Position numbers and translations under genes: made by a program. Below the pieces are notes generated by a model. It was given only the letters and a program-made list of their open reading frames with translations, had not been told where the DNA came from and made no database searches. This document shows, piece after piece, positions 1,124-13,575 of a DNA stretch of 47,077 bases. Source of the DNA: Verrucomicrobiota bacterium (GTDB lineage Bacteria; Verrucomicrobiota; Kiritimatiellia; CAIQIC01; JAGNIJ01); NCBI GenBank assembly GCA_018823105.1, contig JAHJJH010000224.1, positions 1-47,077 on the forward strand, read 5' to 3'. Positions within the stretch are counted from its first letter, which is position 1. Each line of letters starts with the position of its first letter.

Positions 1124-3232
1124 ATGAAGAAACAGTCCGCCACCCATCTTCTGCCCAGCACGCCCCTGCTGGTGCCATACGGGGCGCACGTAGTGGAAAA
1201 AGGGGTGCAGTTCACGCTCTTCAGCCGGCACGCCACGCGCGTGTGGCTGATGCTCTTCGACAACCCGGACGATACCGAGCCCGTGGAGGAATTCGAGCTG
1301 ACCTCCGACCGCAACCGCATCGGCGACATCTGGCACCTGCACGTCGAGGACGCGCGGGAGGGCCAGTTCTACCTCTACCGGATGGAGGGCCGGACGCCCA
1401 AGGGCGTGGCCAATTTCTTCGACCCCGAACAGTGGCTCCTGGACCCCTACGCGCTGGCCGTAGCCGGCGCGCCGAAATGGGAGGACACCCGGGGCCTGGC
1501 GCCGGGTGTCGTGCCTCGCCACGGACCGCTCTTTCCCAAGGGCGTCATCGTGCGCGACGATTTTGACTGGTCGAAGGACCGGACGCTGCGCGTCCCGCTC
1601 GCCGACACGGTGATCTACGAGATGCACCTGCGCGGCTACACGGCGCACGCCTCGTCGGGCGTCAAGGCCCCCGGGACGTACCGCGGGCTCATTGAAAAAA
1701 TCCCCTACCTGCGCGACCTGGGCGTGACGGCCGTCGAACTGCTGCCGATCCAGGAATTCAACGAGATGGAGTACTACCAGGCCAACGACGCGCGGCGCGA
1801 CCTGCGCAATTTCTGGGGATACAGTACGCTGGCGTTCTTCGCCCCCAACGGGCGGTACGCGCAGGACGGCGTGGTCGGGCGGCAGGTCCGGGAGTTCAAG
1901 AAGATGGTCATGGCCCTGCACCAGGCCGGCCTGGAGGTTATCCTCGACGTGGTCTTCAATCACACCGCCGAGAACGGCGACGGCGGACCCACCTACTCGT
2001 TCCGCGGCATTGACAACTCGATTTTTTACCTGATGGAGGAGAACCGGCCGCACTACAAGAACTTCTCGGGCTGCGGCAACACGGTGAACAGCAACCACCC
2101 GGTCGTCCGCGATTTCATCCTCAACTGCCTGCGCTACTGGGTCCTGCACATGCACGTGGACGGATTCCGGTTCGACCTCGCCAGCATCCTGGCTCGCGGC
2201 GCGGACGGGGAGTTGCTGCCCGACCCGCCCATCGTGGAACACATCGCCGAGGACCCCGCCCTGCGCGATACCAAAATCATCGCCGAGGCCTGGGACGCCG
2301 CGGGCGCCTACCAGGTCGGCACCTTCCCCAACGAGCGCTGGTCCGAGTGGAACGGCCTGTTCCGGGACGACATCCGCCGCTACTGGAAAGGCGAGGCCGG
2401 GATGCTGGGCCGTCTCGCCATGCGCCTGACCGGCAGCGCGGATCTCTACGACAAGAGCGGCCAGACCCCGAGGAAGAGCATCAACTTCGTCACCTGCCAC
2501 GACGGGTTCACCCTCCGGGACCTCGTTTCCTACGAGCGCAAACATAACGAGGCCAACGGAGAGCAGAACCGGGACGGCGAGCGCCACAACCACAGCCGCC
2601 ACTATGGCGAGGAGGGCCCCACCCGCGATCCGGAAATCAACGCCGTGCGCAGCCGCCAGCAGAAAAACCTCCTGGCGACGCTCTTCCTTTCCATGGGCGT
2701 GCCCATGGTGCTCGCCGGGGACGAGTTCTCGCGCACCCAGAGGGGCAACAACAACGCCTATTGCCAGGACAACAAGATCAACTGGGTGAACTGGGAGCTG
2801 CTCCAGGAGAACCAGGCCCTCCATGCCTTCGTGAAGAGGCTGATCGCATTCCGCAAGGCGCACCCGTCGCTGCGCCGGACGCGGTTCCTGGGCGGAAAGC
2901 AGCCCGAGGCGACCAACGCAGACATCGCCTGGCATGGCGTCAACGGGCGCGCCCCCGATTGGGAGAAGGACTTTGCCGTGGCCTGCCTGTTGAACGGGCG
3001 GGCCGAGCATACGGGCGGCCCCGAGGACGACGACAGCCTCTTCATGATCTTCAACGCCGGCGAGGAACCTGCCACTTTCCTCATCCCGCCGCCGCCCGAC
3101 AAGCCCTGGACCCTGGCCCTGACCACCGAGGAGCATCCGCCCATGTGGTATCGCGCGAAGGGCGTATTCACCGCCGACGCGCGGTCGGTCACCGCCCTCG
3201 CCTCCGCGCCCTTCCGCCGGTTCTGGCGGTGA
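1124..3232 (+). CDS. glgX: Glycogen debranching enzyme (isoamylase, CBM48 + GH13_11)
   Basis: Motifs 'GVQFTLFSRHA', 'NFWGYST', 'LDVVFNH', 'VDGFRFDLAS', 'IAEAWD', 'NFVTCHDGFTL', 'TQRGNNNAYCQDN'. ATG 1124 follows the upstream stop; the ORF is open from 1103. Confidence 0.95.
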   Translation: MKKQSATHLLPSTPLLVPYGAHVVEKGVQFTLFSRHATRVWLMLFDNPDDTEPVEEFELTSDRNRIGDIWHLHVEDAREGQFYLYRMEGRTPKGVANFFDPEQWLLDPYALAVAGAPKWEDTRGLAPGVVPRHGPLFPKGVIVRDDFDWSKDRTLRVPLADTVIYEMHLRGYTAHASSGVKAPGTYRGLIEKIPYLRDLGVTAVELLPIQEFNEMEYYQANDARRDLRNFWGYSTLAFFAPNGRYAQDGVVGRQVREFKKMVMALHQAGLEVILDVVFNHTAENGDGGPTYSFRGIDNSIFYLMEENRPHYKNFSGCGNTVNSNHPVVRDFILNCLRYWVLHMHVDGFRFDLASILARGADGELLPDPPIVEHIAEDPALRDTKIIAEAWDAAGAYQVGTFPNERWSEWNGLFRDDIRRYWKGEAGMLGRLAMRLTGSADLYDKSGQTPRKSINFVTCHDGFTLRDLVSYERKHNEANGEQNRDGERHNHSRHYGEEGPTRDPEINAVRSRQQKNLLATLFLSMGVPMVLAGDEFSRTQRGNNNAYCQDNKINWVNWELLQENQALHAFVKRLIAFRKAHPSLRRTRFLGGKQPEATNADIAWHGVNGRAPDWEKDFAVACLLNGRAEHTGGPEDDDSLFMIFNAGEEPATFLIPPPPDKPWTLALTTEEHPPMWYRAKGVFTADARSVTALASAPFRRFWR

Positions 3233-3263
3233 GGGAAGAAACAACATCCGAGAGGTCGGGGCG

Positions 3264-3339
3264 TGTCATGCCGAGCCTGTCGAGGCATCTCCGCCATGAA
3301 CAGCATATCGGAGATCCCTCGACTTCGCTCGGGATGACA
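3264..3339. repeat. Imperfect intergenic palindrome (~30-bp arms, REP/MITE-like) between convergent genes
   Basis: TGTCATGCCGAGCCTGTCGAGGCATCTCCG (3264-3293) pairs with CGGAGATCCCTCGACTTCGCTCGGGATGACA (3309-3339). Confidence 0.8.
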
Positions 3340-3351
3340 GCGCAACCGACA

Positions 3352-3705
3352 TCAGGCATTGGACGTTTTTTCCCGGCGTGCTTTGGCGACCGTCCGCGTC
3401 TCTGCCGCGATCCATTCCAGGAACGGAGGATGCCCCCTGGACAGCGGCCAGGCGACAATGCACGGGACTTCGTAACTGTGTTGTTTTTTAATCGCGCCAA
3501 TCAGTGCTTCAACGCGCCGCTCTTGTGTCTTCGCCAGCACGGCCACTTCGCGCCCGTCTTCGACGATGCCCCGCCAACGATAGATCGAACGGATCCCGGC
3601 CAGGATATTTACGCATGCCGCCAGACGCCGCTGGACGACGGCACGTCCGATTTTCCGGGCCTCTGTCATTGTGCCGGCCGTGAAATAGACCATCCAGATT
3701 TTCAT
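3352..3705 (-). CDS. cutA: Divalent-cation tolerance protein CutA
   Basis: 'ARKIGRAVVQRRLAACVNI..I.SIYRWRG', 'KT', 'HSYEVPCI' are CutA signatures. Start taken at MKIWMVY (ATG 3705). Confidence 0.92.
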   Translation of the reverse strand: MKIWMVYFTAGTMTEARKIGRAVVQRRLAACVNILAGIRSIYRWRGIVEDGREVAVLAKTQERRVEALIGAIKKQHSYEVPCIVAWPLSRGHPPFLEWIAAETRTVAKARREKTSNA

Positions 3706-3843
3706 AAAAACCCCTGTCTTTCTCGACCCTTCATTATCACTTTTTAGAATGCGTGGCAACGCCGAGCAGGGCCGTACCTAGTAAATAGAGAAATAGCCTG
3801 TAAATCAAATGGTAATGGCGCCGGCGAGCAGGTAGCGGCCTCT

Positions 3844-3858
3844 TGGTACGGAAGTTGC
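3844..3858 (+). promoter_or_regulatory. Putative sigma-54 (-24/-12) promoter for the lipoprotein gene
   Basis: TGGTACG-GAAG-TTGC matches TGGCACG-N4-TTGC at all but one position, ~20 nt upstream of ATG 3878. Confidence 0.5.
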
Positions 3859-3877
3859 GTTAATAATTCTGGGGTAT

Positions 3878-4465
3878 ATGAAGAAGGCATCCAGAATTGT
3901 GACCTTTTTGTTCCTCGCGCTTTTCGGGGCCGGGTGCGCCAGCATGCCCGCCCCCTATAAACCGGCAACAGAGGGCCGAATCAACAATGCCGAACGCGAC
4001 GTCGCTTTGGAAATCAGACTCGACACCGAGACCCCCGTCATCGCCATCGGCGATCCGATTTTTCTGATTGTAACGATCCGGAATGTCGGACCGAACCGCG
4101 TATGGCTGCCCCAGCAGCCCACCGTGTTGATCAGCTGGATTTACCCCGACGGCATACACGACAATTTCCTGAAGGAACTGCGCGAAGAAGAACGTTTGGC
4201 GCCTCACCAGCTCGTCTGCCTTGAACCGAACCAGCAGATATCGCAACGCGTCGAGGTGCGCACCTACTACTTCGATCGGCTGGGCGTCACGGAGTTCCGG
4301 GCCCTGTTGCACACAGGCCGCAACACGAATCCGGACACCGGGCCGACCTGGATGGGGCGGCTGCAATCGAATTCCTTCGGCGTCCGCATCGAGCGGCGCA
4401 CTAAAAAAAAGATGTCCGATTTCCGTATCGTGAATGGCGACGCCCCTGACCAGCCGGATGCGTAA
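3878..4465 (+). CDS. Hypothetical lipoprotein (probable Ig-like beta-sandwich)
   Basis: Basic N-region, hydrophobic stretch and lipobox 'FGAG-C' at residue 20. Beta-strand-like pattern 'IGDPIFLIVTIRNVG'. Confidence 0.7.
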   Translation: MKKASRIVTFLFLALFGAGCASMPAPYKPATEGRINNAERDVALEIRLDTETPVIAIGDPIFLIVTIRNVGPNRVWLPQQPTVLISWIYPDGIHDNFLKELREEERLAPHQLVCLEPNQQISQRVEVRTYYFDRLGVTEFRALLHTGRNTNPDTGPTWMGRLQSNSFGVRIERRTKKKMSDFRIVNGDAPDQPDA

Positions 4466-4469
4466 AATT

Positions 4470-4542
4470 CTCCGGCGGCGGAGCGCCGGAGCTACAGATT
4501 GTTTCGGTGTTCACCTGTAGTTCCGCCGCTCTGTCGGCGGAA
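4470..4542. repeat. Pair of GTAG-type REP-like hairpins in opposite orientation
   Basis: CTCCGGCG-gcggag-CGCCGGAG-CTAC (4470-4495) and GTAG-TTCCGCCG-ctctgt-CGGCGGAA (4517-4542), between convergent genes. Confidence 0.75.
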
Positions 4543-4556
4543 AGCAGAAGGGGCAT

Positions 4557-6296
4557 TCATGTCAACGTCACGCCCAGCGCCAGCACCTTCCATCCGCGCG
4601 CGGGAATGACCAGTTTGTCGGCGCGCACAGGCCTGTCCGTCCACAGATCGCGCGCCGCCCGTTCAAGACGATGTGAAACCGGCAGGTCTCCCGCGTTCAG
4701 CAACACGCGAATGACTTGCCGACGGTCATAACGCTCGAAGGCCAGCAGGCGCTCGTGCCCCGCGTCCAGCCAGCGAAGCCGTCCGCGTCGCAAGACCCGG
4801 TGCGCTTTCCGCAGGGCGATGGCGTGGCGTACAAAGGCCCGCAGTTCGAGGTCCGGTTCCCGCGGCGCGGCCGGGCAACTGCCCCGCGGTGTGTGAGTTT
4901 CCGGTTGGTGCCGGATATCACCCCAGCCCATGGGCTGGCGGTTGTCCGGATCGTTGGCCCCCCACATCCCGACCTCGGTCCCGTAGTAGAGCATCGGCGC
5001 GCCCAGGCCGGTCATCTGGAAAACGATCATCTGTCGCAGCGCGGCCAGCGCGCGCGGCCCCGGTCGCGTGGTCTTGAGATCCGGATTGGAATGCGCCCGC
5101 GGGAAATTGAAGTAGCTGTCCCAGTCCGGGAACGGCGGACAGGCGTTCTCCAGCAGCGTCAGGACGCGGCCGGTGTCGTGCGAATCCAGCAGGTTTTGCA
5201 ACGCGTAATTCACCGGGCGTGGGTACCGCCGCCAGAGCTCGTTGAGCCTTTTCTGCAATTCGGCGGCGGGCAGGGGGCGTTCGGAGGGCGAGAAAAAACC
5301 GAGCGTCGGATACAGCCACATGTAGTTCATCACGGCATCGAACTCATCGCCCCGGAGGAACTCGTCTGCGTAGCCCACGACCTCGCCCGTCGTGTAGGCC
5401 CGCGGATTGATCTTTTTCACGTGCCGGGCCCAGCTTTTCCAGAAACCGTGCGGCACGCAGAAGGCGACGTCCAGCCGCCAGCCGTCCACGCCGTCGGATG
5501 GATCGCCGTCGCCGTCCGGATCCATCCAGCGGCGCGTGATGGCGAAGAGGTAGTCGCGCACGGGTTTCGCCAGCGTGGTTTTTGTACGCGCCAGTTCCGG
5601 CAGCCCGGCGTGGTCGAACCAGCCCTGGTAGTCGAACGTGCCGTCGGCGCGCCATTCCTTGATGCGAAACCAGTCCTGGTAACGCGACGCGCGCCCGTTT
5701 GTCACCAGGTCGCGGAACGCGAAAAAGTGCGTGCCAACGTGGTTGAACACCCCGTCGAGGATGATGCGCATTCCGCGGTGATGCACCTCCGCGACCAGGT
5801 CCACAAGATAGCGGTCCGCCGCGGTCCATATCCACGTCTTCGGGTCCTCCGTCTCGCACGCGGCGGCGAGGAGGGCCAGGTCGCCCTCGCGGTCGGGGCC
5901 GAGGGTCGGGTCCACGTGATGCAGGCAGGCGGCATCGTACTTGTGCAGCGACGGCGCCATGAAGATCGGGTTCAGGTAGATCGCGTTGACGCCGAGGTCC
6001 TGGAGGTAATCCAGCTTCCCGCGCAATCCGACGAGGTCGCCGCCGAACCGGCGCTGATACACGGAACGATAGAACGCACCCGACAGCTTTTCCCAAGCCG
6101 CCCGATCGTACCAGTCCATGCCCCATGGCGAGACCTTCCAGCCCGGGACCGGGTTGCCGCCAATGTCTTCAGGGCGCGGATTGCTGGACGGGCAGCCGTT
6201 CCGGAACCGCTCCGGGAACACCTGGTACCAGATCGCATCCGCCGCCCAATCCGGCACCCGGCTTTTCGGTTTCACCGCGCGCGGGGCTCGTTTCAT
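4557..6296 (-). CDS. GH13 neopullulanase/cyclomaltodextrinase-type alpha-glycosidase (cytoplasmic)
   Basis: 'PDWAADAIWYQVFPERFRNG', 'GGDL.G...KLDYLQDLGVNAIYLNPIF', 'LDGVFNH', 'DGWRLDVA', 'GEV', 'NLLDSHD'. GGAGG lies 7 nt before ATG 6296 (alternative ATG 6302). Confidence 0.92.
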   Translation of the reverse strand: MKRAPRAVKPKSRVPDWAADAIWYQVFPERFRNGCPSSNPRPEDIGGNPVPGWKVSPWGMDWYDRAAWEKLSGAFYRSVYQRRFGGDLVGLRGKLDYLQDLGVNAIYLNPIFMAPSLHKYDAACLHHVDPTLGPDREGDLALLAAACETEDPKTWIWTAADRYLVDLVAEVHHRGMRIILDGVFNHVGTHFFAFRDLVTNGRASRYQDWFRIKEWRADGTFDYQGWFDHAGLPELARTKTTLAKPVRDYLFAITRRWMDPDGDGDPSDGVDGWRLDVAFCVPHGFWKSWARHVKKINPRAYTTGEVVGYADEFLRGDEFDAVMNYMWLYPTLGFFSPSERPLPAAELQKRLNELWRRYPRPVNYALQNLLDSHDTGRVLTLLENACPPFPDWDSYFNFPRAHSNPDLKTTRPGPRALAALRQMIVFQMTGLGAPMLYYGTEVGMWGANDPDNRQPMGWGDIRHQPETHTPRGSCPAAPREPDLELRAFVRHAIALRKAHRVLRRGRLRWLDAGHERLLAFERYDRRQVIRVLLNAGDLPVSHRLERAARDLWTDRPVRADKLVIPARGWKVLALGVTLT

Positions 6297-6353
6297 CGCC
6301 ATTCCTCCGGGAAATGGGGCGGCATTATACGCGGCCCCGGGGGGGCGTCAACG
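6277..6353. repeat. Left copy of 77-bp degenerate direct repeat bounding the 3.9-kb cassette
   Basis: Shares ordered, near-equally spaced blocks GCGCGC / GTTTCAT / TCCT / GGGAAATGG / ATTAT / CGCGGC / CGTCAACG with 10176-10252. Confidence 0.7.
6324..6351 (-). promoter_or_regulatory. Sigma-70-type promoter of the GH13 gene
   Basis: Minus strand TTGACG-N16-TATAAT, followed by GGAGG RBS and ATG. Confidence 0.7.
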
Positions 6354-6534
6354 AAAGCCCAAGAGTTCCCGCCATGCGGCCGATCACACCGTGGCATTGA
6401 ACAATGGGAAGAACTGACATAAAACTTGGTGACGCCGATGGGGGCAGGTCAACTTGGGCGGAATCACGCGTGTCGCCACGAGCGCAATGGCGACCGGATA
6501 AGGACATGCGGCTCCCGGCTTTGGGCCACACATT

Positions 6535-7872
6535 ATGAGGCTGCGCCATCTCGATCTGGAGGTTCTTCGGATCTTTGCCTCGATCGCGGCGACGCGCGTT
6601 GTGGACGCCGCCGCACTGGCGCGGATTCAGACCCGGCGGCTGAGGCGGCTCGTGAGGTACGCATACCGCCACGTGCCGTTCTACCGCGACCTGTTCGAAC
6701 GGTGCGGGCTCCGGCCGGACGACGTCCGCTCCGCGCGCGACCTGTCCCGCCTGCCGGTGATCGGAACGGACGTGCCGCGCGCCCGACTGCCGGAGATGGT
6801 CTCCCGGGAAGTCGACCTCGATCGTTGCCTGCGACGGGTCACGGCGGGCACGACCGGAGCCGCTCTTCTCTGCCCGTGGACGCGGCTGGAGATGCTGCTG
6901 GACATGATGCGGTGGACGCAAGGCTACATGAGGCACGGGCTGAGGCCGTGGCACAAGCAGGCGAAAATCGGAATCCCCCCTCTGATGAACCGGCGCCCGA
7001 CGTTCCTGCAGAAGCTCGGCCTGTTTCGCCGCCGCTACTTCCCCGTGCTGGAGTCGGCCCCGGCCAAGATCGCATGGCTCCGCGAGCAACGGCCCGACGC
7101 GCTCTTCACCTGGGCCTCCTGCCTGGACGAGATCAGCCGCCAACTCGAGCGGGAAGGCGGATCGTTGTCCATCCCCCTCGTCTTCAGCGCGTCCGACATG
7201 CTGTGGCCGGACACGCGCCGCCGCGTCCACGAGCGGATGGGCGCCCGCGTGACGAACACGTACGGCTCGGTGGAAACCGGTCCGGCGGCCTGGGAATGCC
7301 CGGTCGGGGGCGGGTTCCACGTCCTCACCCACGAGGTGATCGTCGAGATCCTGGACGAGCGGGAGGACCGGCCGTCCAGGCGGGGCCGCCTTGTCTGCAC
7401 GCCGCTGTGGCGGTTTACCATGCCGCTGTTCCGATACGCTATCGGAGACATGGCCGAGTGGGACGACCGCCCGTGTCCTTGCGGGAGCCCGCTGCCGGTG
7501 CTGCGGAACCTGCAGGGGCGGGCCTGCGACCTGATCCAGTGGCCGCCGGGAGGCCCCTGGGTACTGGCCGCACCTCTGCTGCGCCCGATGTATGAGTCCC
7601 CCGAGGTCAGGCAGTTCCAATTCGTCCAGGAGGCGCCGGATCGTTTTCTCCTACGCGTCGTGGACGAGCCGACGTTCGGCCCGGAAACCGAGCGGCGCCT
7701 GCTCGCCGACTACCGGACCTGTTTCGACGGAAAGATGCATGTGCGGATCCGCAAGGTCGCGCGGATCCGACAGCCGCCGGAGGTCAAGTTCACGACCATC
7801 GTCACCCTGAAACGCCTGGAGGAGATCCGGATCCGGGGCGGGGATGTCGGCTGTTTTTTCGAGGACACTTGA
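6535..7872 (+). CDS. Phenylacetate-CoA-ligase-like adenylate-forming enzyme (CapK/PaaK family)
   Basis: 'LRRLVRYAYRHVPFYRDLF', P-loop-like 'TAGTTG', 'NTYGSVETG..AWEC', 'MPLFRYAIGD', 'CPCG..LP.L....GR..D'. Confidence 0.85.
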   Translation: MRLRHLDLEVLRIFASIAATRVVDAAALARIQTRRLRRLVRYAYRHVPFYRDLFERCGLRPDDVRSARDLSRLPVIGTDVPRARLPEMVSREVDLDRCLRRVTAGTTGAALLCPWTRLEMLLDMMRWTQGYMRHGLRPWHKQAKIGIPPLMNRRPTFLQKLGLFRRRYFPVLESAPAKIAWLREQRPDALFTWASCLDEISRQLEREGGSLSIPLVFSASDMLWPDTRRRVHERMGARVTNTYGSVETGPAAWECPVGGGFHVLTHEVIVEILDEREDRPSRRGRLVCTPLWRFTMPLFRYAIGDMAEWDDRPCPCGSPLPVLRNLQGRACDLIQWPPGGPWVLAAPLLRPMYESPEVRQFQFVQEAPDRFLLRVVDEPTFGPETERRLLADYRTCFDGKMHVRIRKVARIRQPPEVKFTTIVTLKRLEEIRIRGGDVGCFFEDT

Positions 7873-7976
7873 AATGATCGGCCTCTCGCGAGCACCATTT
7901 GCTTGCGCATCCCTGCGTTCTATGGTCAAAGGGGTTGAACATGCGCAACCGTGATCAGCAGAAGGAATAAAATCAC

Positions 7977-8807
7977 ATGCCAAACCCAGATCCCATGTCC
8001 GACCAAAACCCCGCAATCCACGAGAAGCAGTATGCCAGCAACAAATGGAAACCCCCGGTTTCGATCCGGCCGACCCGGGAGTTGCTGGAGGTATACGACC
8101 GATGGATTGCGCGGACGGCAGAACGTCGGGGTGCGCGCATGCTCATCTTGGGCTCGACTCCGGAGTTGCGGGACCTGGCCCTGGCCCACGGCCTCGTGCC
8201 CGTGTCCTGCGACCACAGCCCGGTCATATGGGAGAGCATGAAGGCCCTCATGACGCAGCGCGGCCCGGAGGAGTTCCTGCAGGTGAACTGGCTGGAAATC
8301 CCGGAAGCCCATCCATATGACCTGGTCGCAGGCGACGGCTCGCTGGTGATGCTCCGGCCGGACCAGATCGAGCCGATGCTGCTGAAGATCGCAAAGCTCT
8401 TGGCCCCCACCGGAGCGGCGCTCCTGAAGGTGGGCGTCCGAAGCCGCCCGTTCGCGCCGAAGGACTTTACGGACGCCGTCGCGGAATATCGGCGCACCCG
8501 CCCGCCCATGTCGTTGCACGAGTACGTCCTCATCCTTGTCACCGAGTTGCGCAGCGACCGCTACGTGGATTGGACGCTGCGCGAGTTGTGGGAGCGCGTG
8601 CTCTTCGCGCACTTGACCCCCGAAGAAATCGCCGAGGTCCGGCCGTGCCTGCTGGACGCCCGGTTCTACACGCCCACGAAGGCGGACTTCGAACGAATGG
8701 CGGCTGGTTGCTTTACCGTGGAACAGGTGGTCGAGGCCAAGGGACCCGGGCAGTGGGGCACGACGCATCTGTACGTGCTCCGGCCCGTGATCGCCGCCGG
8801 AGGATAG
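7977..8807 (+). CDS. Class I SAM-dependent methyltransferase-like protein
   Basis: 'MLILGSTPELRDLA' (motif I variant), 'VSCD', 'YDLVAGDGSL', 'LLAPTGAALL'. Start could also be ATG 7995. Confidence 0.65.
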   Translation: MPNPDPMSDQNPAIHEKQYASNKWKPPVSIRPTRELLEVYDRWIARTAERRGARMLILGSTPELRDLALAHGLVPVSCDHSPVIWESMKALMTQRGPEEFLQVNWLEIPEAHPYDLVAGDGSLVMLRPDQIEPMLLKIAKLLAPTGAALLKVGVRSRPFAPKDFTDAVAEYRRTRPPMSLHEYVLILVTELRSDRYVDWTLRELWERVLFAHLTPEEIAEVRPCLLDARFYTPTKADFERMAAGCFTVEQVVEAKGPGQWGTTHLYVLRPVIAAGG

Positions 8808-8829
8808 TGCGGTACCCGGTCTTGCGTTC

Positions 8830-10101
8830 ATGAGCCCTCAAAATACGCCCTGTGCTTCGTCGTCCGCTCGTCGCTCGAGCGGCTTCGGCCGATGGCTTGG
8901 CGTGCTCCTGTTCTTTGGCTTGGCCTGCCCCGGCGACCTGTACGCCCTCCGCCTGCCGCTCAAGCCGGCGATCCTGCTTGCCGCCGCCGGCCTGGCCGCG
9001 CTCCAACTGGCCTCCGCCGATCGAATGCGCGAGGCGTGGCGCACGCTGCTCGCGCCGCCGATGGGGTGCTTCGCTTTGTTCCTGCTTACGGCTCTCGTCG
9101 CCATGGGCCACACCGCTCACCTTCGGCCCGCGTTCGCGTTCATGGCGCTCTACGTGTCCGCCCTGCTCGTGGCGCTGGCGGCCTGCGGCGAGTCACCCGC
9201 CCGTTTGCTGGGCCTCTATCGCCACGCCGTCGGACTTAACCTCCTACTGTCCGCGCTGGTTCATTTCCTCGGCGTGTTCCCCGGCTTCATCCAGGTGAGT
9301 GAGGGCCTGCGCTTCGGCGGCCTCTATGCCTACCCCACCCCCGTCGCGGCCGCGGCGGCCACCTACCTCTTGATCTTCCTGCAGCAGCGCCGCGAGCGCC
9401 TGGCGGAGGACACCCCGCCGCGGAGGCTGACCGGCATGCAGGTGCTCCGATGGCTGGAGTTTGCGGCGGCGACGTGGGCATTGTGGCAGGCCCGCAGCCG
9501 GGGGGTTCCGATCATACTGCTGGCGGTGTCCGTCGGGTTCCTGCTGGCACACGCGGCGGTGAAGCTTCGCCATCGTTCGACGGAGCCGATTCCACGATGG
9601 CCTTTCTTCACGGCGGCCTTAAGCCTTGCGCTGCTGGCCGACACCGTGATGACCCGCGGGACCGGCAGCCTGGCGACGATGAGCGGTCGGATTCCAGCCT
9701 GGAAACAAGCGCTGGGGGCTATCGCCGCCCATCCGTTCCTCGGCTATGGTCCCGGCTCCTTCCGGGATGTGTTCCCGCTGCAACAGGGCGCCGGTTGGCA
9801 TTCCTTCGGCTCTCACAATGCCATCCTCGATGCGTGCCTGTACTCGGGCGTCCTTGGCGGCCTCTTCTACACCTGCTTCCTGGCGGGCGTTGTGCTGAGC
9901 ACGGCCGCTCGCTTCGCGCGGCACCCGGCCCGCGCCGGCACGCCCTTCATCCTCGCAACCTTCTGGGTCCTGCTGTCGATGACGGACCCGCTTCTCATGC
10001 GCTGGCCCTACAGCAGTCACGTAGTCCTGCTTGTCATGGCCGCCTGGATGAGCCGGCCGAGTGATGGCCCGAGCCGTTCCTGCACGACGCGGATGGAGTA
10101 G
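8830..10101 (+). CDS. O-antigen ligase/Wzy-like polytopic membrane protein
   Basis: Many TM segments plus 'SRG', '[22 protein letters not shown]', 'HNAILD.....GVLG' (Wzy_C-type motifs). Confidence 0.85.
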
Positions 10102-10175
10102 TTGTCCTGGAGCAGGTGCGTGGCGAGGCTGTGCCGGAAAGTGTGGGCGCTCACGCGCTTGGTCAGCCCTGCCGT
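10065..10175 (-). pseudogene. Remnant of a tyrosine recombinase (integron-integrase-like box II region)
   Basis: Minus-strand translation '[36 protein letters not shown]' carries the HxxR...LG(H) catalytic box. No in-frame start, N-terminal part or catalytic Tyr is recognisable. Not in the ORF track. Confidence 0.8.
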
Positions 10176-10252
10176 GCGCGCCGGCCTTGTTTCATGGAAG
10201 CTCCTTCAGGGAAATGGCGGGTATTATGCGCGGCGCCTCTCCCTCGTCAACG
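10176..10252. repeat. Right copy of 77-bp degenerate direct repeat (orphan promoter + RBS + ATG on minus strand)
   Basis: TTGACG-N16-CATAAT, GAAGGAG, ATG AAA CAA GGC CGG CGC GC versus ATG AAA CGA GCC CCG CGC GC at the GH13 start (17/20 nt identical). Confidence 0.7.
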
Positions 10253-10375
10253 GCGACCCGGCACGCTCATCTCACGCCCGGGTGCGCCGAGTTGTTTTGG
10301 CGACGACGACGAAAAACCTTTATCGCTGGAAGCCAGTGTGGGAAACTTGGCGCCAGTTATGCAATGGAGGCAGCC

Positions 10376-11911
10376 ATGAATGGAGAATCGTTTCCTGTTC
10401 CTTCGAATCGTATTCCTCGGCGCCGGGGCTTGGCCCTGCCCCTTTTCACCGGGGGCGGGGTGCTGTTGATCTTCGCGCTGGCGCTGGCGATTCCTCTCTG
10501 GGTCTGGTTCTTCTGGCGAATCGAGCCGGATGCGGGCGAGATCGCGGTGCTCATTCACAAGACCGGGAAGGACCTGCCGTCCGGCCAGATCCTGGCCCTG
10601 GAACCGGACCAGAAAGGCATCCAACTGGAAGTCCTGCCGGAAGGCCGGTATTTCCATAATCCTTTCTCGTGGGGCTGGCGCATCTCGCCGATGAACGATA
10701 TCCCGGCGGGGAAACTCGGCGTGCAGACGCGCCTGTTCGGGGCCGACCTGCCGCCGGGCGAAATCGTCGCCGGGGAAGGCACCAAGGGTATCCTGGCCGA
10801 CATCCTGCGGCCCGGGAAGTACCGCATCAATCCCTTCGCGTACAGTGTGGAGATCTTTGACGCGATTTCCATCCGGCCCGGCTCGGTCGGCGTGGTGACT
10901 TCGCTCGCCGGCCGCGACGTGCTGAACAGCGAGTTGAAGCCGGAGGAGCGCAACACGTTTCTCGTAAGCAAGGGGCTGAAGGGCGTGATCCCGGAGGTGC
11001 TCGAGCCTGGGACGTACTACCTGAATCCCTACCTCTTCGCCGTCTCGGAGGTGAACCTGCAGAGCCAGCGCTTCGAGATGAGCGGCGAGGACGCGATCAG
11101 CTTCCTGACCATGGACGGGTTTACGGTGTCGGTCGAAGGGACACTGGAGTACGCCATCATCCGGGAAAAGGCGGCGCTGATTACGCACCGGGTCGGCGAC
11201 ATGGACGACATCCTCAAGAAAGTCATCCTGCCGCGCGCCCGCGGGTTCAGCCGCATCGAAGGCAGCAAGCACCCGGCGATCAACTTCATCGTCGGCGAGA
11301 CGCGCCAGCAGTTCCAGGACACGCTCGAGGCGCACCTGCGGGAGAAATCCGAGGTCTGGGGCGTGGCCATCAAGTCCGTCCTGATCCGTAACATCAAGCC
11401 GCCGGACGAGATCGCCAGCGTGATCCGCGACCGCGAGGTGGCGGTCCAGAACGCGCTCAAGATCGAGCAGCAGATCGCGCAGGCGAAGTCCAAGGCGGAA
11501 CTGGGGAAACAGGAGATGCTGGCCGAGCAGAGCAGGCAGAAGGTCGAAGCGGACACGGCCCGCATCCGCGCGGTGATCCGCGCGCAGCAGGAGATGGCCG
11601 TGCGCCTGACGGCGGCACGCAAGGACTTGGAGGTGGCCGAGGTCGAGAACGAGGCGGCGGACTTCCAGGTGCAGGCCCGGCTCGCGGCCGCGGAAGCCGA
11701 ACGGGACGTGATCCGGCTGAACAACGAGGCGCAGGCCGGCGTGCTCAAGGGCCAGGTGAAAGCCTTCCGGACCGGGATGAATCTGGCCCGCTATACGCTC
11801 TATCGCAAACTCGCACCGCGTATCGCGACGATCCTGACGGGGGATCAGAAGGACGGGCTGGGCGCCGTCTTCCTCCCGTTCCTTCCCGACCGGAAGGAGG
11901 TGGCCCAATGA
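10376..11911 (+). CDS. SPFH/Band-7 domain protein A (one TM, three tandem repeats, SPFH domain, coiled coil)
   Basis: GGAGG RBS then ATG 10376; TM helix; 3x 'KG....L.[EP]G.Y..NP'; 'FLTMDGFTVSVEGTLEY'; 'GVAIKSVLIRNIKPP'; A/E/Q-rich tail. Confidence 0.85.
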   Translation: MNGESFPVPSNRIPRRRGLALPLFTGGGVLLIFALALAIPLWVWFFWRIEPDAGEIAVLIHKTGKDLPSGQILALEPDQKGIQLEVLPEGRYFHNPFSWGWRISPMNDIPAGKLGVQTRLFGADLPPGEIVAGEGTKGILADILRPGKYRINPFAYSVEIFDAISIRPGSVGVVTSLAGRDVLNSELKPEERNTFLVSKGLKGVIPEVLEPGTYYLNPYLFAVSEVNLQSQRFEMSGEDAISFLTMDGFTVSVEGTLEYAIIREKAALITHRVGDMDDILKKVILPRARGFSRIEGSKHPAINFIVGETRQQFQDTLEAHLREKSEVWGVAIKSVLIRNIKPPDEIASVIRDREVAVQNALKIEQQIAQAKSKAELGKQEMLAEQSRQKVEADTARIRAVIRAQQEMAVRLTAARKDLEVAEVENEAADFQVQARLAAAEAERDVIRLNNEAQAGVLKGQVKAFRTGMNLARYTLYRKLAPRIATILTGDQKDGLGAVFLPFLPDRKEVAQ

Positions 11912-13575
11912 AATCCACCTTCGCTATTGTGGTTACGCTGGTGATCATCGTCGGCGGCGTGTGGCTGTTCTGGCAATGGGGCATCTGCCGCTTCTACGTG
12001 GACACCGATGAAATGGCCGTAATCATCGCCAAGATCGGCGACCCGCTGCCCCCCGGCCAGATCCTCGCGAATCCCGGGCAGAAAGGCGTCCAGGAAGCCG
12101 TCCTCGGCGAGGGCCGGCACTTCCGGAACCCGTGGCTGTACGAACGCGTGATCAAGCCGGTCATCGTCATCCCCCCCGGCAAGGTCGGCGTGGTTACGTC
12201 CAAGGTCGGCAACGAACTGCCGCAGGGCGAGTTCCTGGCGGAGGTCGGCCAGAAAGGTATCTGGCGGCGAGTGCTGGGGCCCGGCAAGTACCGGCTGAAC
12301 CCCTACGGGTACCAGGTGGAAGTCGTCAACGCCATCAGTGTCCCCATCGGGTATGTCGGCGTGATCACCTCGCTCTCCGGGGAGCAGGCCCCCCCGGGTG
12401 AATTCGCCGGGACAGGACAGAAGGGCATCCGCAAGGACGTCATGCAGCCGGGCCTTTATTATGTCAATCCGAAGGCCCTGAAGACCGACGTGCTGGAGAT
12501 CGGCGTCAACCAGGTCTCCCTGATCGGCAAGACCGGCGGCGAGGTCATCACCAAGACCCAGATCGCCAGCCAGAACGTGGCCATGCAGCAGTTGCAGCGC
12601 CAGGTACTCGACGACCAGAAGGATAAACGGATGGAGTATATGATGTCGCGCGCGCAGGAAGCCGCCCCGGCGCCGAAACCCGGGATGAAAGCCGTCCAGC
12701 AGATGCCGGACTACAGCGCCGCCTTGAGCATAGCGCAGTTCGTCGAATTCCCCTCGCGCGACGGGTTCGAGATCAGCCTGGACATGACCGTCGAGTTCGA
12801 ACTGCTGCCCGAGCTCATCGCCGCGATCTTCCGCAACTACGGCGACCTGCCGGCGGTCGTGGACAAGATCATCATGCCGCAGATCCTCTCCGTATCACGC
12901 CTCAAGGGCTCCGCCTACCGCGCCAAGGACTTCATCGTCGGCGAGGGCCGCGAAAAGTTCCAGAGCGACCTGACCGAGGCGCTCGCGCGGTCGCTCGCGG
13001 AGCGGAAGATCGTCATCCACAACGCCCTGATCCGCCACGTCAACGTGCCCATGCAGATCCTCGATCCCATCCAGCAGGCGAGCATCGCCGTGGAGCAGGA
13101 CCTGACCAACCAGGAGAAGCAGAACACGGCGAAGAAGCAGGCCGAACTGAACACCCAGTTGAGCCTGATTGACCAGGCCCGCGAGCAGGTGGCGCAACTG
13201 ACGGAGAAGATCAAGGCGGAGATCAAGGCCGACCAGGAGAAGCAGGTCGCCAAGATCCAGGCGGACACGCTCAAGCAGACGGCGGACATCGCGCGGCAGA
13301 CCGCCCAGGTGCGGGCCGAAAGGACCCGTAAACTCGGCGGCGTGGAGGCCAAGGTGATCGAGCTCGTGGAGGGCGAGAAGGCGAAGGGCTTCGAGCTCAA
13401 GGCCGACGCCTTCGGCGACCCGTCCGGCTTCTCGCTGTGGGAGTTCGCCCAGAGCCTCAACCCGCAGGTGCAGGTCAACATCCTCCACTCCGGCCCGGGC
13501 ACGCTCTGGACCGACCTCGAGAAAGCGCGGCTCGGCGACCTCGGCGGCGCCGCGGTGATCAAGCAGGAGAAATAA
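11908..13575 (+). CDS. SPFH/Band-7 domain protein B (paralog of A, with ~70-aa insertion)
   Basis: ATGA overlap with A and AAGGAGG RBS; same three repeats; 'FPSRDGFEISLDMTVEF'; 'IVIHNALIRHVNVP'; coiled-coil tail. Confidence 0.85.
   Translation: MKSTFAIVVTLVIIVGGVWLFWQWGICRFYVDTDEMAVIIAKIGDPLPPGQILANPGQKGVQEAVLGEGRHFRNPWLYERVIKPVIVIPPGKVGVVTSKVGNELPQGEFLAEVGQKGIWRRVLGPGKYRLNPYGYQVEVVNAISVPIGYVGVITSLSGEQAPPGEFAGTGQKGIRKDVMQPGLYYVNPKALKTDVLEIGVNQVSLIGKTGGEVITKTQIASQNVAMQQLQRQVLDDQKDKRMEYMMSRAQEAAPAPKPGMKAVQQMPDYSAALSIAQFVEFPSRDGFEISLDMTVEFELLPELIAAIFRNYGDLPAVVDKIIMPQILSVSRLKGSAYRAKDFIVGEGREKFQSDLTEALARSLAERKIVIHNALIRHVNVPMQILDPIQQASIAVEQDLTNQEKQNTAKKQAELNTQLSLIDQAREQVAQLTEKIKAEIKADQEKQVAKIQADTLKQTADIARQTAQVRAERTRKLGGVEAKVIELVEGEKAKGFELKADAFGDPSGFSLWEFAQSLNPQVQVNILHSGPGTLWTDLEKARLGDLGGAAVIKQEK

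Follow-up and report, generated by a model that had tools for sequence, protein, structure and literature searches.

An insertion scar between two diverged copies of a GH13 promoter and start in a Kiritimatiellia genome

Why should the promoter and first codons of one gene be found a second time, 3.9 kb away, with three oppositely oriented genes in between? The question is raised by contig JAHJJH010000224.1, from a metagenome-assembled genome (MAG) of the Kiritimatiellia (G000; 3.56 Mb); its positions 1-47,077 are the window considered here. The gene concerned encodes a cyclomaltodextrinase-like GH13 glycoside hydrolase (4557-6296, minus strand), and the two copies, both read on the minus strand, lie at 6277-6353 (the left copy) and 10176-10252 (the right copy). 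A preliminary description of this DNA proposed that an integrative element had inserted at the 5' end of the GH13 gene and had supplied it with a replacement promoter and start. Both the duplication and the insertion are real. As to how they arose, the account that we prefer, and to which we would give an even chance of being correct, is that the block is the immobile remnant of a mobile island, inserted in this lineage only by recombination in the GH13 promoter region, with the native promoter left in place on the GH13 gene, an incoming one at the far end of the block, and decay thereafter.

The two copies are each 77 bp long and lie 3899 bp apart. Aligned without gaps, they are identical at 52 of the 77 positions (about 56 of 78, by hand count, if one pair of 1-nt gaps is allowed near the 5' untranslated region, 5'UTR), and the coordinates and sequence that had been given for them are accurate. 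On the minus strand each reads TTGACG-N16-(T/C)ATAAT, a ribosome-binding site (RBS), and then ATG AAA C.A G.C C.G CGC GC; more fully, both have, in the same order, orientation and spacing, CGTTGACG, a 12-nt variable spacer, CGCG(T/C)ATAAT, CCATTTCCC, the RBS and the ATG AAA codons. The left copy comprises the promoter, RBS and first seven codons of the GH13 gene, with its -35 box (TTGACG) at 6346-6351, its -10 box (TATAAT) at 6324-6329 and its RBS at 6303-6308; the gene starts at the ATG at 6294-6296 (giving MKRAPRA), an in-frame ATG further upstream being too near the RBS. In the right copy, which is a diverged version of the same GH13-type promoter, RBS and start, the -35 box is at 10245-10250, the -10 box (CATAAT) at 10223-10228 and the ATG at 10193-10195, and all that starts there is a 10-codon stub (10163-10195; MKQGRRA...), which in another frame leads into a match to Phage_integrase. 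Each copy has the layout expected of a sigma-70-type promoter (-35 and -10 boxes, a spacer of 16-18 nt, an RBS and a start), and may be predicted to act as one. A scan of 6150-10500 for the sigma-70-like consensus found these two sites only (11/12 at the left copy and 10/12 at the right), where shuffled sequences lead one to expect 0.6.

Might so short a likeness be accidental, or typical of a whole class of promoters? The shared blocks are mostly consensus (-35, -10, RBS and ATG AAA), but the 5'UTR block CCATTTCCC, which is not, is common to both copies, and so are the codons. Moreover, in a search of the entire genome with +1/-1 scoring, each copy was the sole match of the other (expectation value, E, 2.4e-5), so that there is no third copy, and the pattern does not precede a series of unrelated genes. 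When the window was compared with itself, all against all, the pair (E 1.1e-4) came top of the 16 listed pairs outside identified coding sequence. Across 55 genomes of the order, the pattern made up of the -35 box, -10 box and 5'UTR block occurs twice in G000, once in each of two members of the same genus (G001 and G002), and in none of the other 52; the lone matches in G001 and G002 are their GH13 promoters. Because the motif is confined to GH13 promoters in three of the 55 genomes, it does not represent a generic promoter class. The right copy also aligns with the GH13 promoter of G002 (63/88, gapped). The similarity is real and specific, and we find it scarcely credible that chance or a generic promoter type could explain it. 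(A candidate third copy at 4154-4179 was dismissed as a chance match: E is 3.8, and it lies in apparent coding sequence with no -35 or -10 box upstream.)

That the block is an insertion emerges from a comparison of relatives. In G001 and G002, and in four genomes from other genera and families (G003, G006, G010 and G013), the GH13 gene is likewise divergent from the SPFH side, and all six are without the three-gene cassette at this locus; since same-genus and more distant relatives alike lack the three genes, the block is a lineage-specific insertion, and to this extent the proposal of an insertion at the GH13 gene was well founded. The distance between the GH13 and SPFH homologies is 886 bp in G001 and 855 bp in G002, against 4098 bp in G000, and the matched GH13 and SPFH stretches of the other four are 266-463 bp apart (by subtraction of match coordinates). 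The conserved divergent neighbours in the window are two SPFH/Band-7 genes on the plus strand (10376-11911 and 11908-13575; Pfam Band_7, E 3.6e-25 and 1.5e-13), which share 86-87% DNA identity with those of G001 and G002. Between the right copy and these genes is native SPFH-side intergenic DNA (10253-10375), where G001 and G002 become homologous again at about 10309; from about 10544 the identity profile stays flat, and we have discarded the idea of a foreign patch reaching into the SPFH genes. At the other end, the relatives' homology is lost in 38 bp of unknown origin (6354-6391). If the block that separates the copies were deleted, about 180 bp of intergenic DNA would remain between the GH13 and SPFH genes, so the suggestion that excision would restore a divergent arrangement is sound as far as the end product goes, but self-driven excision is not credible now, because only 38 integrase codons remain.

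Those 38 codons form an internal 114-bp fragment of a tyrosine recombinase gene (10068-10181, minus strand; PF00589 Phage_integrase, E 1.1e-8, profile positions 118-155 of 172) that lacks the N-terminal two-thirds and the region of the catalytic Tyr, and they are the integrase remnant that had been noticed beside the right copy. The match begins in the GCGCGC that also closes the right copy, the overlap amounting to the last 6 nt, and three unrelated pieces (the end of a Wzy_C gene, the integrase fragment and the stub) abut within about 130 bp. Near the left end is the right-end fragment, including the terminal inverted repeat, of an IS3-family insertion sequence (IS), presumably of an IS407-like subgroup: 60 bp (6392-6451, plus strand), situated 38 bp from the left copy and 92% identical to G000:C26:6995-7054. 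Its terminal 14-mer occurs once in the window, and this one end is accompanied there neither by a second inverted repeat nor by a transposase of the DDE type with two open reading frames (ORFs). Two other kinds of element were rejected: a composite transposon, as the window holds a single IS end only, and an integron, as the orientation of the integrase fragment is wrong for the three genes to be its cassettes. No candidate for an excision factor is found among the three ORFs of the block, and Rfam and tRNA scans of 3200-10600 found nothing, hence no tRNA-type attachment (att) site.

Two side observations concern these families elsewhere in the genome. The IS3-family copy at G000:C26:6995-7300 (reverse strand) is internally deleted, its transposase start being fused to the C-terminal end, and retains both terminal repeats, so that it resembles a miniature derivative. 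In each of three integrase paralogues (C168:245-457, C95:28719-28931 and C275:5199-5390), the conserved HTFRH / SHLL box is broken at an identical position by an insert of about 90 bp containing a stop codon; abundant contigs from the sequencing runs X1 and X2 (introduced below) carry the same insert, and we presume some resemblance of these paralogues to integron integrases.

Which of the two copies, then, is native? Homology between G000 and G001 or G002 runs unbroken from the body of the GH13 gene through the entire left copy (125/152 and 122/152), does not fall in identity at the inner edge of that copy, and ends right after CGTCAACG at 6353. Over the 77 bp, the left copy is identical to G002 at 66 positions and to G001 at 58 (G001 and G002 share 63), whereas the right copy has only 49 in common with G002 and 47 with G001. 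Because the left copy is the closer of the two to its orthologues, it looks native, and the right copy looks foreign or decayed. The right copy is identical at 41 of the 56 positions that are invariant among the left copy, G001 and G002, with mismatches concentrated in the spacer and between RBS and ATG, regions that vary among the orthologues too, so that it has the appearance of a homologue that has evolved under promoter constraint. Beyond CGTCAACG, its flank is weakly reminiscent of that of G002 (GGCG.CCC.GC; 8/12), and the flank of the left copy is not. A crossover at the -35-distal edge would give such a pattern, if the left copy were native and the right copy brought together an incoming homologue and native SPFH-side DNA.

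From these comparisons we infer a native left copy, together with the following mechanism and order of decay. A 3.9-kb segment with its cargo of three genes would have entered the divergent GH13/SPFH intergenic region in one recombination event, which may have been either a Campbell-type single crossover or the site-specific integration of DNA bearing its own homologue of the promoter and start; the apparent crossover point would be CGTCAACG, at the -35-distal edge. The promoter, RBS and first seven codons would then have been present on both sides of the block, the left copy being the native promoter, which would still drive the GH13 gene, and the right copy an incoming, more divergent homologue, which would now be an orphan promoter with a 10-codon stub. 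Decay would have followed, with deletions joining the 3' end of the Wzy_C gene, the 114-bp integrase piece and the codon 7 end of the stub end to end, and with an IS3-family element landing near the left end and subsequently being reduced to 60 bp.

Further information came from sequencing runs, all in the form of assembled contigs: X1 and X2, which probably represent the source sample, and X3, from another sample. One X1 contig is identical to the window over all of 5500-11000, and there are X2 contigs across both junctions, although, as both runs are probably from the source sample, their support for the assembly is not fully independent. Over 5500-11000, none of the contigs of the three runs joins 6353 to 10253, bearing in mind that contigs cannot show rare junctions. 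An X2 contig covering 9573-10336 departs from the window at five places, all within the right copy (C>G at 10207, C>G at 10218, an A inserted behind 10219, T>C at 10222 and G>A at 10228), its other 740 bp or so being identical; four other differences were seen elsewhere, in about 4600 nt. Three of the substitutions and the length change give the state of the left copy, including the change from CATAAT to TATAAT. Two alleles of the right copy, differing by a short patch, therefore coexist in the source sample, and the patch is best explained by conversion from left-type sequence or by a complex mutation. Separately, a low-depth X3 contig of 185 nt (record 20) matches 6208-6352 with 19 differences and is unlike the window after 6352; the 12 listed differences are all at or left of 6304, none being within the 48-bp promoter core, and the other seven are unplaced (differences at contig ends are unlisted).

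Several observations weigh against the idea of an incoming right copy, and the native copy could yet be the right one. The metagenome protein P0013, which of all GH13 relatives is the closest (86% amino-acid identity), starts MKQGPRV, much like the stub of the right copy (MKQGRRA), while the N-termini in G000 (from the left copy), G001 and G002 are MKRAPRA, MKRSLRA and MKRRPPA. At fourfold sites of the GH13 gene, G000 is 67% identical to G001 and G002, so a native right copy undergoing neutral decay could have reached its present 61-68%. The GH13 gene itself may be a mosaic: the ratio of informative sites grouping G000 with P0013 to those grouping it with G001 is 15:20 as far as about codon 296 and 42:10 from there on (maximum chi-square test; p 0.006 by permutation), which is a hint of recombination, not proof. 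If the crossover was indeed at the -35 edge, the 69-bp promoter homologue carried by the element would be functionless, which is odd for a dedicated att site. In composition the insert does not stand out (47% of chunks drawn at random from the genome deviate as much or more), which suggests that it is old or that its donor was of similar composition; the argument for a foreign origin must therefore be made from comparative absence alone. Searches for a donor returned, for Wzy_C in genome contigs, only a distant, partial match (41%) in an Anaerolineae MAG, and, for the promoter pattern in metagenome contigs, a single match that was G002's own contig (100% identical), with no full-length relative of the element among the contigs of either search.

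Since the N-terminus of P0013, the fourfold divergence and the split among GH13 sites all point this other way, we have kept two explanations in which the right copy is the native one. The first is that of the preliminary description, in which an element of the dusA or SXT/prfC kind integrated in the first GH13 codons, the left copy being the promoter, RBS and N-terminus that it supplied, and the right copy the displaced and decayed native version. In dusA- and prfC-type systems the integrase lies beside the displaced native stub. No other explanation gives the homology carried by the element a function; the MKQG of the stub, which resembles the N-terminus of P0013, is accommodated, neutral divergence (67% at fourfold sites) could account for the 61-68% identity of the right copy, and the X2 allele shows that the right copy changes fast. 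The layout also matches known systems in which, according to PMC8409611, the promoter and N-terminus supplied by the element end up on the gene body. It is nevertheless hard to see why a supposedly foreign left copy should be closer to G002 (66/77) than G001 is (63/77), with the supposedly native right copy as the outlier, or why identity should show no drop at the inner edge of the left copy. Neither an intact integrase nor an excision factor is present, and, because the integrase fragment starts at the edge of the repeat, a deletion of about 900 bp exactly up to the core would be needed. We consider this explanation unlikely, and with it the idea that the working promoter and start came with the element, which sits badly with continuous homology through the left copy and with the greater divergence of the right.

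The second explanation with a native right copy, which we think less probable still, is that homology-facilitated illegitimate recombination brought the block in from a strain of Kiritimatiellia related to this one. The donor DNA would have consisted of part of a GH13 gene, the donor's promoter (the left copy) and the islet upstream of it; there would have been a homologous crossover in the GH13 gene and an illegitimate joint at codon 7 of the recipient, stranding the recipient's promoter and stub (the right copy) 3.9 kb away. The mosaic signal, with its breakpoint near codon 296, would fit, as would the P0013-like stub, the six bases of microhomology (GCGCGC) at the joint of stub and integrase fragment, an insert with the composition of the genome (to be expected of a closely related donor), and the presence of different cargo at the same intergenic site in G001 and G002 and in a further genome, G007. 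Trees, however, give merely an unresolved trichotomy for the 5' half of the gene and group G000 with P0013 for the 3' half (support 82/84), with no supported conflict between them; at fourfold sites, the 5' half exceeds the 3' half only a little in identity to G001 and G002 (0.68-0.69 vs 0.59-0.64); the mosaic could equally lie in P0013; and just two residues of the stub tie the right copy to P0013.

A local origin is also conceivable: the promoter and start might have undergone tandem duplication in the G000 lineage, unrelated insertions arriving later between the copies while the unused copy decayed. The identical orientation and exact spacing of elements in the two copies would be natural on such a basis. 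Where the left copy, G001 and G002 vary among themselves, the right copy agrees with the left at 11 of the 21 positions, compared with six for G001 and eight for G002, and its X2 allele is four changes closer to the left copy. But the right copy has only two of the four derived states that are specific to the left copy where G001 and G002 agree; its codon 4 specifies Gly, as in P0013 and in P0015, unlike the left copy, G001 and G002; it has preferentially kept constrained positions (the 41/56 mentioned above), as neutral decay would not; and mobile-element fragments are situated exactly at the ends of the block. We place this improbable sequence of events behind both explanations that make the right copy native.

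Insertion with the left copy native, and with an incoming right copy, accordingly remains the account that we favour. A bolder possibility deserves mention, although we see it as a long shot: Kiritimatiellia could be host to a new family of integrative elements whose target is the 5' end of the GH13 gene (promoter and first codons) and which bring with them a promoter, RBS and N-terminus. On this view the left copy would have come from the element and would keep the GH13 gene expressed, as dusA and prfC elements do for their targets; the native promoter, left stranded, would persist and read antisense into Wzy_C; and short-patch conversion from the left copy would make the -10 box of the right copy alternate between CATAAT and TATAAT.

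The three genes between the copies are, as had been reported, on the strand opposite to the GH13 gene (here the plus strand). The first (6535-7872) encodes a PaaK/F390-synthetase-like adenylate-forming ligase, matching the NCBIfam DVU_1553-family AMP-dependent CoA ligase model (E 1.4e-37, below its cut-off) and, weakly, Pfam AMP-binding; paralogues with 44-46% amino-acid identity are encoded on C56 and C234 of G000. The second (7977-8807) is methyltransferase-like, its relatives matching PF13649 and the window protein doing so weakly; it is unique in the genome and was found in none of 400 other genomes sampled from the class (0/400 hits), but a large protein collection contains eight relatives, the nearest being P0002 (83% amino-acid identity). 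The third (8830-10101), also unique in G000, determines an O-antigen-ligase-like membrane protein (Pfam Wzy_C, E 2.9e-10). Its alignment with its nearest relative, P0012 (71% identity), reaches about residue 415 and so runs up to the integrase fragment, meaning that only its last 8-10 codons are antisense integrase. The cluster of P0002 and P0012 share a listed longest contig of 69,012 bp, and among the matches listed for the GH13 protein none has a longest contig of that length. To judge from these family matches, the cargo is probably a polysaccharide-type module for surface-polysaccharide modification. The GH13 protein has a Pfam Alpha-amylase match (E 1.8e-42) and matches the NCBIfam maltodextrin glucosidase and cyclomaltodextrinase models, both below cut-off; its orthologues have 82-86% amino-acid identity. 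Just downstream of its gene (4469-4543) is a palindromic element of about 75 bp, 80-84% identical to sequences on several G000 and G001 contigs and either like a repetitive extragenic palindrome or a shared terminator, and within the gene a stretch of 28 bp (5739-5766) is matched in inverted orientation, at 96%, in a distant part of the contig (39764-39791).

The site in G001 and G002 is not truly empty: an ORF of 213 amino acids, on the SPFH strand and with no homologue in G000, lies there (in G001, locus L002, at about 640-1280), and its secreted-looking product may be exported. In G007 the same place is taken by a single gene (G007:C222, L018 1121-2058), which, by eye and from the N-terminal sequence, reads like an NAD-dependent epimerase/dehydratase. 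No flanking repeats or mobile-element debris were seen around the cargo in G007 or in G001 and G002. Insertions seem to have landed repeatedly between the GH13 and SPFH genes, where three lineages have three different cargoes. Some further features of the region may be recorded. In G003, G006, G010 and G013 (going by sequences from G003, G010 and G013) the GH13 promoter region differs, and has repeats of the TTTTCCAA/TTGGAAAA type; upstream of the gene in G010, G003 and G007 (L008, L009 and L018), palindromes of the TTTTCCAA-N-TTGGAAAA type stand two or three in tandem. These resemble operator sites and are absent from the genus of G000. In G001 (L002), an 18-nt stretch at 575-592, 83% identical to the GH13 -10/5'UTR sequence, recurs 67 bp towards the SPFH genes (642-659), and could be a chance match or what remains of a second copy.

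The element is a fossil, and the locus a fairly ordinary but well-documented insertion scar. It offers a clean, kin-dated example of the addition of a small polysaccharide module to a Kiritimatiellia genome, relevant to surface-glycan variation in a little-cultured phylum, and it illustrates how insertion beside the 5' end of a gene can leave a second consensus-like promoter aimed antisense into the newly arrived genes. Annotators should call neither the stub ORF nor the integrase fragment as a gene.

How does this scar compare with known systems? In phage 21 and e14, which occupy icd, and in the islands of tRNA genes, integration rebuilds the 3' end of the target gene; the present block resembles such prophages in being flanked by an extended, imperfect duplication of a gene end, but here it is the 5' regulatory end plus seven codons that is duplicated, and no active element is present. 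A closer parallel is with the dusA islands and SXT/prfC, where integration is described in PMC8409611 as supplying a promoter and N-terminus to the target gene. Promoter-supplying 5' integration is thus already known, and no new mechanism is seen here. Like dusA elements (such as IMEVchUSA3) and SXT/R391 in prfC, the block is inserted at the 5' end of a gene, with the promoter and first codons duplicated across it as direct repeats, a tyrosine recombinase sequence at one end, and an unoccupied site in relatives. Unlike them, it has just a 114-bp fragment in place of an intact integrase, neither excision factor nor transfer genes, a cargo of three genes (those elements are of 20-100 kb), and repeats that, at 68% identity, lack any long exact core. 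It also differs in host (a Kiritimatiellia MAG) and in target (a GH13 gene). The gene-attached copy, moreover, looks native rather than element-derived: its likeness to the orthologues in G002 and G001 (66 and 58, vs 49 and 47 for the right copy) speaks against a foreign origin for it, with the MKQG of P0013 and the GH13 mosaic speaking in favour. Decayed genomic islets have in common with this block accessory genes that sister genomes lack, borders marked by truncated pieces of integrase and IS, and host-like composition, though few of them keep a recognisable second copy of the neighbouring gene's promoter and start codon, as this one does.

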